DNA of 64,000 bases from Escherichia coli (GCF_009931435.1 NZ_CP043414.1); one strand, 5' to 3'. Positions 24,841-28,021 are shown, counted from the first letter of the stretch. Notes: generated by a model not told the origin, from the letters alone. Numbers and translations: made by a program.

Positions 24841-25758
24841 TTAAACGTTAAACACGGTGAAATCATGCGCCAGTTCAGTCGCCGGGAAAATTGACCTGCA
24901 TTCACGTAACAGGTGCTGACAACCTTTGTCATCATAGCGCGAGCTGACGTGGGTAATGATTAGCTTACCGACTCCAGCCTCACGGGCCAGTGTCGCAGCC
25001 TGGCGTGTAGAGCTATGACCGCGACTATTGGCTTTGGCTTCCATGGTTATATCCAGCGTCGCTTCGTGCACCATGACATCGACACCTTTAGCCAGGTCAA
25101 GTGCGGCATCGCAGGGGCCGGTATCGCCGAAAATAGCGAGCGCTTTACCTGGCACTGGAGCAGCTAAGTAATCTGCGCCGTTAATCTGCCTTCCATCTTC
25201 CAGCGTGATTGTTTTGCCCGCTTTTAATTCCTGAAACAGTGGGCCAGGCGGCACGCCAGCAGCTTTTAATGCCTGGGCATTTAATGCACCCGGTTTATCA
25301 TGTTCTTCAATACGATAGCCATAACATTCCAGTGGGTGTACCAGCGGATAAGCGGTTACTTTGCGCAGGCCATCATCGAAAATTTCGCCAGCGCCAATTT
25401 CGACAATTTCCAGCGGATAATCGGTCCATGAGCCGCTAATCCGCAGCGCAGTCTCCACAAATTCACGGAGACCTTGCGGACCATAAATCGTTAAGGGTTG
25501 GACAATACCAGACATAGAACGACTGCACAGCAAGCCGGGTAAACCAAAGAGATGATCGCCATGAAGATGGCTGATAAAAATCTTGTCCAGTTTTCCAGGG
25601 TTAAAGGCGGTATGCAGTAGCTGATGCTGGGTGCCTTCACCGCAGTCAAACAACCAAAGCCCGCTCTGGGTCGGATGTTGCAGGTTAAGCAATATTGCCG
25701 TGACATTGCGCGTACGGGTTGGCACACCGGCTGAAGTACCTAAAAAAATTAATTCCAT
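24841..25758 (-). CDS. rbn: RNase BN / RNase Z (metallo-beta-lactamase fold)
   Basis: 305 aa from [13 protein letters not shown]; HxHxDH motif (HLHGDHLFG); the ORF-track start lies 6 codons upstream. Confidence 0.88.
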
Positions 25759-25822
25759 GAGTTCATCACGTTTCAAAAAATATTCCGGCTAGTATAAGGC
25801 ATACATCTAAAAGGAGAGCATT

Positions 25823-26284
25823 ATGATTGAATGGCAAGATCTGCATCACTCTGAATTATCGGTTTCCCAGCTTTATGCCTTATTACAACTGCGTTGCGCG
25901 GTTTTTGTTGTTGAGCAGAATTGCCCTTATCAGGATATCGATGGTGATGATTTGACGGGGGATAATCGCCATATTCTCGGTTGGAAAAATGATGAACTGG
26001 TGGCGTATGCGAGGATTCTGAAAAGTGATGATGATCTTGAGCCGGTCGTTATAGGTCGGGTGATTGTCAGTGAAGCGTTGCGTGGCGAAAAAGTGGGGCA
26101 GCAGCTGATGAGTAAAACACTCGAAACATGTACGCGTCACTGGCCTGATAAACCTGTTTACCTCGGGGCGCAGGCGCATCTGCAAAACTTCTACCAAAGT
26201 TTTGGCTTTATCCCTGTGACGGAGGTCTATGAAGAAGATGGTATCCCACACATTGGGATGGCACGCGAGGTAATTCAGGCGTAA
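25823..26284 (+). CDS. elaA: GNAT-family acetyltransferase ElaA
   Basis: 153 aa; AAGGAG RBS; divergent from rbn. Confidence 0.88.
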   Translation: MIEWQDLHHSELSVSQLYALLQLRCAVFVVEQNCPYQDIDGDDLTGDNRHILGWKNDELVAYARILKSDDDLEPVVIGRVIVSEALRGEKVGQQLMSKTLETCTRHWPDKPVYLGAQAHLQNFYQSFGFIPVTEVYEEDGIPHIGMAREVIQA

Positions 26285-26338
26285 TCAATAACCATTGTCT
26301 ATAGTTAGTGACAGGTTTTACGCAAATGGAGAACGAGA

Positions 26339-26644
26339 ATGTCTAATCAGTTTGGTGATACACGTATCGATGACGACCTGACGCTGCTTAGTGAAACACT
26401 GGAAGAGGTGCTCCGCTCCTCTGGCGATCCCGCCGATCAGAAATATGTTGAGCTGAAAGCGCGTGCAGAAAAAGCGCTGGATGATGTGAAAAAACGGGTT
26501 AGCCAGGCTTCAGACAGTTATTACTATCGGGCGAAGCAGGCTGTTTATCGTGCTGATGACTACGTCCACGAAAAACCCTGGCAAGGAATTGGGGTGGGCG
26601 CGGCCGTTGGGCTGGTATTAGGACTGTTGCTGGCACGCCGTTAA
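26339..26644 (+). CDS. elaB: Ribosome/membrane-associated DUF883 protein ElaB
   Basis: 101 aa with C-terminal hydrophobic tail (GVGAAVGLVLGLLLARR). Confidence 0.88.
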   Translation: MSNQFGDTRIDDDLTLLSETLEEVLRSSGDPADQKYVELKARAEKALDDVKKRVSQASDSYYYRAKQAVYRADDYVHEKPWQGIGVGAAVGLVLGLLLARR

Positions 26645-26657
26645 AACCTCCCTACAC

Positions 26658-26688
26658 CGGGGTACTGCATTTTTTTTGTAGTACCCCG
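26658..26688 (+). terminator. Hairpin downstream of elaB with a T-run in the loop
   Basis: cggggtact ... agtaccccg inverted repeat; overlaps a candidate menF -10 (tataat at 26689-26694). Confidence 0.4.
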
Positions 26689-26722
26689 TATAATGTGAGG
26701 CTTTTAACAGGGAGAGGTCCGC

Positions 26723-28021
26723 GTGCAATCACTCACTACGGCGCTGGAAAATCTACTGCGCCTTTTGTCGCAAGAGATTCCAGCGACACCCGGCATTCGG
26801 GTTATTGATACTCCTTTCCCTCTCAAAGATGCTTTTGATGCCTTGAGCTGGCTGGCCAGTCAGCAAACGTATCCGCAATTCTACTGGCAACAACGTAATG
26901 GTGATGAAGAAGCTGCCGTCCTGGGCGCGATTACCCATTTTACCTCGTTGGACCAGGCGCAACGTTTTCTTCACCAGCACCCGGAACATGCCGACTTACG
27001 CATCTGGGGGCTGAATGCGTTTGACCCGTCGCAGGGCAATTTACTTTTACCCCGCCTGGAATGGCGACGCTGTGGCGGTAAAGCCACGCTGCGGCTGACG
27101 CTATTCAGCGAAAGCTCCCTTCAGCACGATGCGATAAAGGCAAAAGAATTTATCGCCACACTGGTGAGTATCAAGTCCCTGCCAGGGTTACATTTAACCA
27201 CCACGCGAGAACAACACTGGCCGGACAAAACGGGCTGGACGCGATTAATCGAACTGGCAACGCAAACTATCGCCGAAGGTGAACTCGACAAAGTCGTTCT
27301 TGCACGGGCGACCGATCTGCATTTTGCAAGCCCGGTTAACGCAGCGGCGATGATGGCAGCCAGCCGTCGGCTCAATCTGAACTGCTATCATTTCTTTATG
27401 GCCTTTGATGGCGAGACCGCGTTTCTGGGTTCGTCTCCTGAGCGGCTATGGCGGCGGCGTGCCAAAGCGCTGCGTACTGAAGCGCTGGCGGGAACGGTAG
27501 CAAATCATCCTGATGATAAGCAGGCGCAGCAGTTGGGCGAGTGGCTGATGGCGGATGATAAAAACCAGCGCGAGAACATGCTGGTGGTGGAAGATATTTG
27601 CCAACGATTGCAGGCCGATACCCAGACGCTGGATGTTTTACCGCCGCAGGTACTGCGTCTGCGTAAAGTGCAGCATCTGCGCCGCTGTATCTGGACTTCA
27701 CTCAACAAAGCGGATGATGTGATCTGTTTACATCAGTTGCAGCCAACGGCCGCGGTTGCGGGCTTACCGCGTGACCTGGCGCGGCAGTTTATCGCCCGTC
27801 ACGAACCGTTCACCCGTGAATGGTATGCCGGTTCCGCGGGCTATCTTTCGTTACAACAAAGCGAATTCTGCGTTTCCCTGCGCTCAGCAAAAATTAGCGG
27901 CAATGTCGTGCGGTTATATGCTGGCGCGGGCATTGTCCGTGGCTCCGACCCCGAGCAAGAGTGGCAGGAAATCGACAACAAAGCGGCAGGGCTGCGTACT
28001 TTATTACAAATGGAAGAGTAA
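26723..28021 (+). CDS. menF: Isochorismate synthase MenF
   Basis: 431 aa; GTG start; chorismate-binding fold; first gene of the menaquinone cluster. Confidence 0.88.

Follow-up and report, generated by a model that had tools for sequence, protein, structure and literature searches.

Overlap of the elaB 3' end signal with the menF promoter in a short intergenic spacer of Escherichia coli

Can the end of one gene's message and the start of the next be encoded in the same few dozen base pairs? The question is raised by the spacer between elaB and menF in a 64,000-nucleotide stretch of Escherichia coli DNA (NZ_CP043414.1; hereafter the window), in which rbn lies on the minus strand and is followed by elaA, elaB, menF and menD, all on the plus strand. 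The locus is matched at 97-100% in 5421 of 5426 complete genomes. The elaB coding sequence occupies 26339-26644, with its TAA stop codon at 26642-26644 (ORF list and RefSeq annotation of the identical K-12 locus), and menF occupies 26723-28021 from a GTG start (ORF list, with the same start in RefSeq NP_416768.4). The 78-bp spacer that separates them, 26645-26722, is the same as that of K-12 at every base, so that K-12 transcript maps can be applied directly to the window. In the K-12 RefSeq annotation elaA, elaB and menF are on the minus strand, with elaB at 2380722-2381027 and menF at 2379348-2380643, and a K-12 position equals 2407366 minus the window position. All junction features described below lie on the plus strand of the window.

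Two promoters feed RNA into this spacer from upstream. The rbn and elaA promoters are divergent and almost back to back (window 25785-25823), and SMRT-Cappable-seq maps the start of rbn to 2381581(+), window 25785, and that of elaA to 2381565(-), window 25801, 16 bp apart (PMC6131387). A table of RppH targets (TSS) also gives elaB a start of its own in the elaA-elaB spacer, at 2381053(-) or window 26313, with AGG as first bases; it sits 8 nt downstream of TCTATAGT (26298-26305), by its appearance a sigma-S-type -10. Since elaB has its own start, transcripts from both the elaA and the elaB promoters reach the sequence that follows the elaB stop codon.

That sequence is a hairpin, which begins 14 nt past the stop. 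Its 5' arm CGGGGTACTGCA (26658-26669) and 3' arm TGTAGTACCCCG (26677-26688) form 12 pairs, including one G-U, and are separated by 7 nt that are all T; the complete run of eight T occupies 26670-26677, of which 26670-26676 are the loop and 26677 belongs to the closing pair. As DNA, the 5' arm corresponds to about -44 to -33 of the menF promoter, while the 3' arm doubles as the promoter spacer. The RNA fold has a free energy of -21.9 kcal/mol against a shuffle mean of -7.2 ± 2.3 (z = -6.3), and none of 200 shuffled sequences was equally stable. The junction therefore has the stable, GC-rich stem-loop of an intrinsic terminator, and lacks the U-rich tract directly 3' of the stem. What follows instead is TATAATGT, whose RNA form UAUAAUGU starts with U-A-U and holds four U in 8 nt. 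This 8-nt tail would form a hybrid of -6.7 kcal/mol, which places it among the weakest 7.6% of 8-mers in the window (mean -10.3). The nearest-neighbour values behind this energy are reportedly those of Sugimoto 1995.

A consensus terminator scan does not call the elaB hairpin, and its sole terminator-like call, a weak 5-bp hairpin at 26646-26663 whose T-run begins 6 nt away, was discarded on account of this gap. A permissive Rfam search of 25500-28000 returned nothing relevant at the junction, with two chance snoRNA matches elsewhere. The hairpin is not a repeated or mobile element: the window has one copy, and each locus compared has it once, invariably at the elaB-menF junction.

Immediately beyond the stem lies the menF promoter. 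The hexamer TATAAT (26689-26694) starts at the first base past the 3' arm, ends 29 nt before the menF GTG, and as RNA (UAUAAU) supplies an A/U-only tail to the hairpin. It is a perfect sigma-70 -10 element, conserved in nearly all species examined. SMRT-Cappable-seq assigns a separate start at 2380664(-), window 26702, to the menF-menD and menF-menD-menH transcripts (PMC6131387); this 5'-triphosphate end, which comes from a single dataset, falls 8 nt after the hexamer, within the 6-9 nt usual for a primary start, and leaves a 21-nt leader. There is neither a -35 nor an extended -10 element, as a 17-bp spacer gives TGCATT (two matches of six) and CCG, not TGn, precedes TATAAT, and a sigma-70 consensus scan found no promoter with both hexamers at the junction. 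The mapped start also falls on T, an unusual initiating base. Even so, the menF promoter has good support from three sides: a consensus -10 element, sequence conservation and a primary 5' end mapped at the expected place. For translation, the leader provides the Shine-Dalgarno region GGGAGAGG (26710-26717), which ends 5 nt before the start codon and hardly varies among 48 species. Because of an in-frame TAA 18 nt upstream (26705-26707), the GTG at 26723 is the first possible start, in agreement with RefSeq for K-12.

The first-pass annotation had placed the T-run inside the loop and not after the stem, the downstream arm against a TATAAT, that hexamer about 30 bp before menF, and the menF start at a GTG. 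This description of the junction is confirmed in every detail.

A separate feature of the menF start is that position 26702 lies on the T-run GGCTTTTAAC (26700-26708), whose GG(T/C)TTTT motif is shared by all genera. When transcription begins on a homopolymer run, as it does at pyrBI, codBA and upp, polymerase can slip and transcribe reiteratively. That something of the kind might occur at menF is pure speculation by analogy.

Where does elaB RNA actually end? In the Term-seq data of Adams et al. 2021 (PMC7815308), the dominant 'primary' elaB 3' end is at 2380674(-), window 26692; it is entered three times in Supplementary file 1, one tab per growth condition, and scores 54,112 and 221,851 in two of the condition tabs. 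An RNA ending at this position finishes in CCCCGUAUA, 4 nt beyond the stem and within TATAAT. SMRT-Cappable-seq, which reads whole primary transcripts (Yan et al. 2018, PMC6131387), reports an elaA-elaB transcript from TSS 2381565 that ends at the same 2380674, labelled 'novelTTS', together with an elaA-elaB-menF read-through unit. Thirty reads start at this TSS, of which 10 end at 2380674 and 16 run at least 50 bp beyond it, the median extension being 199 nt; none ends within the 50 bp downstream. The hairpin thus stops about 40% of the transcripts that arrive from upstream, and the other 60% or so continue. A third dataset, the ribonuclease targetome (PMC10667835), lists the site in its RNase II sheet with a stop at 2380674 and a start at 2380670, corresponding to 4 nt of trimming. 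The end formed without RNase II is thus window 26696, 8 nt past the stem and within the 7-9 nt typical of an in vivo terminator end, which in wild type becomes 26692. The known ompC terminator has the same RNase II pattern in that table (2311604/2311600). The TERMITe and Cappable-seq supplements gave no match for the junction.

These maps bear directly on the earlier proposal that elaB termination and menF initiation share the same 80 bp. Published K-12 data contain both a defined elaB 3' end, at 26692 to 26696, and an independent 5'-triphosphate start for menF at 26702. The proposal holds, and the data support an overlap tighter than first thought: elaB RNA ends in or just past the -10 element, 6-10 nt upstream of the menF start. 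Signal and promoter together occupy about 45 bp, interleaved with each other. The proposal needs two further refinements: the stop at the hairpin is only partial, and the hairpin is not a canonical intrinsic terminator.

The arrangement is probably best read as two overlapping signals in the 78-bp spacer, a leaky elaB stop and the menF promoter. RNA from the elaA and elaB promoters would form the 12-bp stem-loop (26658-26688) after the elaB stop codon, and the stem-loop would end about 40% of transcripts at around 26696, 8 nt past the stem. The final 8 nt of the RNA:DNA hybrid at that point, UAUAAUGU, would be the -10 element of the next promoter plus GU, a weak A/U-rich hybrid taking the place of the U-tract. 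RNase II would then trim the tail back to 26692 while the hairpin shields the elaB message. At the DNA level, the 3' arm, the T-run and TATAAT would compose the menF promoter, from which transcripts of menF, menD and further genes would begin at 26702 with a 21-nt leader, the strong Shine-Dalgarno sequence GGGAGAGG and the GTG start. The parts of this reading differ in strength. Its anatomy, the mapped RNA ends, the incomplete stop and the conservation are observed directly. It is almost certain that the hairpin makes the elaB 3' end. That it does so as a true, if leaky, intrinsic terminator is the reading we favour with some reserve, and we infer that 26696 is a factor-independent release site, not an exonuclease stall, and that TATAAT acts as its weak-hybrid tail.

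Release at 26696 is suggested by the canonical distance of the untrimmed end from the stem, by an RNase II nibble like that of known terminators, and by the absence of a listed Rho region, of a downstream PNPase start among the matches listed, and of reads ending in the next 50 bp. The weak hybrid of the tail and the canonical terminator that sister genera have at this position point the same way. Against release stand the missing U-tract, the read-through of about 60% and the steady-state nature of all the RNA-end data. Exonucleases working from the 3' end also stall a few bases past stable stems, and an end at stem +8 fits processing too. Could the hairpin be only a barrier, then? In that case polymerase would run on into menF, 3' ends would be made downstream, either by Rho acting on poorly translated menF RNA or by RNase E cutting in the single-stranded UAUAAU, and PNPase and RNase II would trim back to the stem, which would stabilise the elaB message. 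A stem without a U-tract is what such a barrier would look like, 16 of the 26 informative reads continue past the site and reach a median of only 199 nt into menF, RNase II does act at the elaB end, and the AU-rich stretch beside the stem resembles the RNase E preference for U two bases past the cut (U+2). Hairpin-limited trimming of Rho-terminated and RNase E-cut RNAs has moreover been described as common in E. coli (PMC6061677, PMC10667835). However, no bicyclomycin-sensitive (Rho-termination) region is listed anywhere in elaB or menF, and the elaB site is missing from the PNPase partial-degradation sheet of stops and starts, among the matches listed (PMC10667835). Trimming should also leave intermediates, yet no SMRT-Cappable-seq read ends in the 50 bp downstream, and the untrimmed end has precisely the 8-nt distance to the stem seen at bona fide terminators of the same table (PMC10667835). 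A further objection comes from related genera, in which a canonical terminator occupies the same place (see below). The barrier explanation is on balance unlikely, and release at a leaky terminator remains the preferred reading.

Two known classes of 3' end come closest to that of elaB. Like other E. coli intrinsic terminators, such as that of ompC, it has a GC-rich stem-loop soon after the stop codon, an end at stem +8, an RNase II nibble of 3-5 nt and no reported Rho signal. Unlike them, it carries the tail UAUAAUGU in place of a U-tract, has its T-run in the loop and stops only about 40% of transcripts, and its factor independence is putative. With the hairpin-protected ends produced by Rho and RNases (Dar & Sorek 2018, PMC6061677; Adv Sci 2023, PMC10667835) it shares a stable stem without U-tract that sets the steady-state 3' end, as well as RNase II trimming of the tail. 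It differs from them in having no listed bicyclomycin-sensitive region, no downstream PNPase start among the matches listed and a canonical release distance. A roadblock by RNA polymerase bound at the menF promoter was considered as a source of the end and rejected by reasoning, as the footprint of a holoenzyme would be expected to stall oncoming polymerases tens of bases before the observed position.

As a piece of gene organisation this is a well-packed but ordinary junction: both RNA ends were already in public datasets, and overlapping terminator-promoter junctions are already known. Its interest lies in the apparent double use of one A/T-only hexamer, as the menF -10 element and as the weak-hybrid tail of the elaB terminator. 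Such double use helps to explain why real 3' ends escape terminator predictors that look for a U-tract; this one was labelled a 'novel TTS' by SMRT-Cappable-seq. Also mildly interesting is that separate lineages have rebuilt the terminator on a promoter older than itself, and that relatives of E. coli may insulate menF by fold-back; to these points we now turn.

For the comparison, 80 menF loci were fetched, one per species, the elaB-menF spacers were extracted, and about 75 Enterobacteriaceae were compared. elaB lies directly upstream of menF throughout the Enterobacteriaceae. The hairpin, TATAAT and GTG are together present in almost all E. coli genomes (5421 of 5426) and in some 50 other Enterobacteriaceae species, a conservation far beyond chance. 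From Escherichia to Buttiauxella, Cedecea, Atlantibacter and Franconibacter there is a near-invariant block, (A/C)CC(C/A)CGTATAAT followed by four variable bases and GG(T/C)TTTT, which continues into a purine-rich Shine-Dalgarno sequence and then GTG. Nearly all E-type and basal Enterobacteriaceae loci that have elaB upstream retain GTATAAT (in a few species GTATACT or GTATAGT), as does Yersinia, and the menF GTG stands at the aligned position in all species but Kosakonia cowanii, which has ATG.

The hairpin has a narrower distribution than the promoter. Yersinia, where elaB is not directly upstream, has no hairpin and keeps the T-rich stretch followed by CCCCGTATAAT. Because they are present there without elaB, the T-rich stretch, the CCCCG that ends the 3' arm and the -10 element can be regarded as old parts of the menF promoter. 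In Escherichia, Citrobacter, Salmonella, Enterobacter, Lelliottia, Kosakonia, Trabulsiella and their relatives the arrangement is GGGTACTG, a T-rich loop and CAGTACCC(C/T)G abutting TATAAT; the 5' arm core GGGTACTG is invariant in 48 species. Buttiauxella and Cedecea instead have a textbook terminator, for example AAATCTTACCCATTGGGTGGGAT followed by nine T, with the T-run where the loop T-run of E. coli sits, about 11-15 nt before the -10 element; Franconibacter also has a canonical hairpin and T-run, the latter shorter than T9. As in E. coli, the terminator of these three genera lies between elaB and CGTATAAT and uses the same T-run just upstream of the -10 region. The difference is that their stem precedes the T-run, whereas in the Escherichia-Citrobacter-Salmonella-Enterobacter group the stem spans it and takes the promoter's CCCCG as its 3' arm. 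The presence of a canonical hairpin and T-run in Buttiauxella, Cedecea and Franconibacter argues that termination at this junction is a conserved function. The spacer comparison thus points to the promoter block (T-rich stretch, CCCCG and TATAAT) as the older component, onto which the elaB terminator would have been built in more than one way, depending on the lineage.

Could the inverted repeat instead serve mainly as DNA? It would then be a menF operator bound by a dimeric regulator, for which SdiA or another LuxR-type protein is a candidate, and would affect elaB RNA only incidentally, if at all. The stretch from -44 to -14 of the menF promoter is taken up by the repeat, whose half-sites GGGTACTG and CAGTACCC are conserved by sequence and not by covariation; the repeat also contains a CTG...CAG core that may resemble lux-type boxes. 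In addition, menFDHBCE promoter fusions have been found to be SdiA-regulated (Schwieters & Ahmer 2024, PMC11619404). On a menF promoter-lux fusion SdiA repressed about 100-fold in E. cloacae, independently of AHL, and activated weakly in Salmonella; in E. coli it had no effect, although the same repeat is present there (PMC11619404). There was also no SdiA consensus with which to compare the repeat. The geometry is also an objection. A LuxR-type operator has fixed half-site spacing, while here the offset from GTAC to GTAC differs between species, at 17, 18 or 19 bp (manual counts): the 3' arm element GTACCCCG is at a fixed distance from TATAAT in all species, and the left arm floats as the loop changes length. 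Such variable spacing is expected of an RNA loop and not of an operator, which makes the operator explanation unlikely. The apical stem pair, moreover, changes in a pair-preserving manner (A-U, U-A, C-G or G-U), and the position of the RNA 3' end corresponds exactly to the stem. The stem of Enterobacter and some Citrobacter is longer and includes the TATA sequence (TATAC with GTATA). The stem core is invariant, so that covariation in the alignment speaks neither for nor against the stem. The overall pattern fits an RNA stem laid over constrained promoter sequence better than a protein operator of fixed geometry, and we regard a primary role as operator as very improbable.

If most upstream transcripts pass the hairpin, are they translated into MenF? 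A C-rich element, CCTCCCT (26647-26653), lies 5' of the hairpin and is complementary to the AGGGAG of the menF ribosome-binding site. As it lies about 50 nt upstream of the start at 26702, only read-through RNA can form this pairing. The core pairing CUCCCU:AGGGAG is available in 41-47 of 48 species. In most minimum free energy (MFE) folds outside Escherichia the segment pairs with the Shine-Dalgarno sequence across the hairpin and promoter in helices of 9-12 bp, such as ACCCUCCCU with AGGGAGGGU in Salmonella, CCCCUCCCUG with CAGGGAGGGG in Kosakonia and AACCUCCCU with GGGGAGGUU in Trabulsiella. Several changes are matched on the two sides. Salmonella has one base fewer on each; in Kosakonia an upstream A-to-C change accompanies an A-to-G change in the Shine-Dalgarno sequence, so that C-G replaces an A·A mismatch; the AACC/GGUU of Enterobacter is GACC/GGUC in Lelliottia, the position being A-U in 12 sequences, G-C in 5 and G-U in 3; and in Trabulsiella and Silvania both sides are remodelled. 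The segment is predicted to bind the Shine-Dalgarno sequence of its own species better than those of others (means of -13.59 and -12.44 kcal/mol; none of 20,000 permutations was as good, with the related species not being independent), and it is within the best 2% of same-strand positions of its locus in 25 of 54 loci. Mean predicted accessibility of the Shine-Dalgarno sequence falls from 0.45 in the RNA of menF's own promoter to 0.24 in read-through RNA. The RNAalifold covariation term for this pairing is about zero, the CUCCCU:AGGGAG core being invariant.

These observations allow a tentative model, possible rather than probable, in which the junction insulates the menaquinone operon, in two layers, against transcription from the stationary-phase elaB unit. 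The leaky hairpin terminator would be the first layer. The second would be the CCUCCCU-type segment, pairing across terminator and promoter with the menF Shine-Dalgarno sequence, so that read-through RNA would have its ribosome-binding site sequestered, stay untranslated and perhaps die early in menF. RNA from the menF promoter, which begins downstream of the anti-Shine-Dalgarno segment, would be translated. Fold-back inhibition of this sort in read-through transcripts was reportedly described for the transposase genes of IS10 and IS50 (Davis, Simons & Kleckner 1985; Schulz & Reznikoff 1991). As in those elements, a segment upstream of the start site is complementary to the ribosome-binding site and the helix can form only in transcripts from outside. 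The menF case differs from them in concerning a chromosomal biosynthetic operon and not a transposase, and its translational effect is putative; the two segments pair strongly in Salmonella, Enterobacter, Kosakonia and Trabulsiella, and in E. coli the pairing is limited to 6 bp and faces a rival outer helix. If the model is correct, a biosynthetic operon would be shielded from an upstream stress gene under strong induction with no need for a tight terminator, and an IS10/IS50-style defence against outside transcription would be at work in a core metabolic operon.

In the E. coli window itself, the 6-bp pairing of the segment with the Shine-Dalgarno sequence is at the 4th percentile and competes with the outer helix, and the predicted Shine-Dalgarno accessibility is 0.54 in both transcript types. 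The outer helix, absent from the first-pass annotation, can form only in read-through RNA. It joins a 5' arm GTTAAAACCTCC (26640-26651), which contains the elaB stop codon, to a 3' arm GTGAGGCTTTTAAC (26695-26708), which spans the menF discriminator, start site and first leader bases; with it included, the MFE fold of 26640-26725 reaches -35.5 kcal/mol (z = -4.3). The helix is specific to Escherichia, where a shorter spacer puts the stop codon beside CCTC. In E. albertii and Escherichia sp. MOD1 the segment reads CCTCAC or CCTCAT, which improves pairing with GTGAGG and abolishes complementarity to the Shine-Dalgarno sequence. Escherichia appears to have swapped the fold-back helix for another outer helix, GUUAAAACCUC with GAGGCUUUUAAC. 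This helix followed by CUUUU was also considered as the real elaB terminator and rejected, as no reads end within 50 bp past 26692 and the Term-seq end is at 26692, not at about 26706.

A second long-range pairing appears in the MFE fold of the read-through RNA, formed by an 11-nt inverted repeat that is 82% complementary, between the last elaB codons (TGCTGGCACGC, 26628-26638) and the menF start-codon region (GCGTGCAATCA, 26721-26731). It may be specific to E. coli, other genera having GCCCGC there.

Several loci of the comparison set depart from the common arrangement. The spacer carries an insertion of 110-125 bp in Enterobacter genomosp. O (locus L052, positions 2289-2501) and in two Buttiauxella loci (L056 and L078), with a shorter, related one in L058. 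The inserted sequence (containing GAATCCCCAGGAGCTTAC and AAGTAAGTGACTGGGGTGAGC) is presumably an ERIC/IRU repeat, judging by the primer sequences of that repeat. In L052 the insertion separates the C-rich segment from the hairpin, making this locus a natural test case for the fold-back. Enterobacter sp. EA-1 (L080, around 2425-2460) is a natural stemless variant that lacks the 3' arm and CCCCG or retains them only in degenerate form (GAGGTACTGCTATTACCCTAAATTGTATACT); a -10-like TATACT, GGTTTTT and the Shine-Dalgarno sequence are still in place. Its MenF is only 38% identical in the best segment, and the locus may be damaged. Finally, a contig titled Parasutterella muris, a betaproteobacterium (L025), encodes a MenF 69% identical to the E. 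coli protein, with TATAAT about 30 nt upstream of the gene. The upstream region is very AT-rich and elaB is absent from it; the gene may have come by horizontal transfer, or the assembly may be contaminated.
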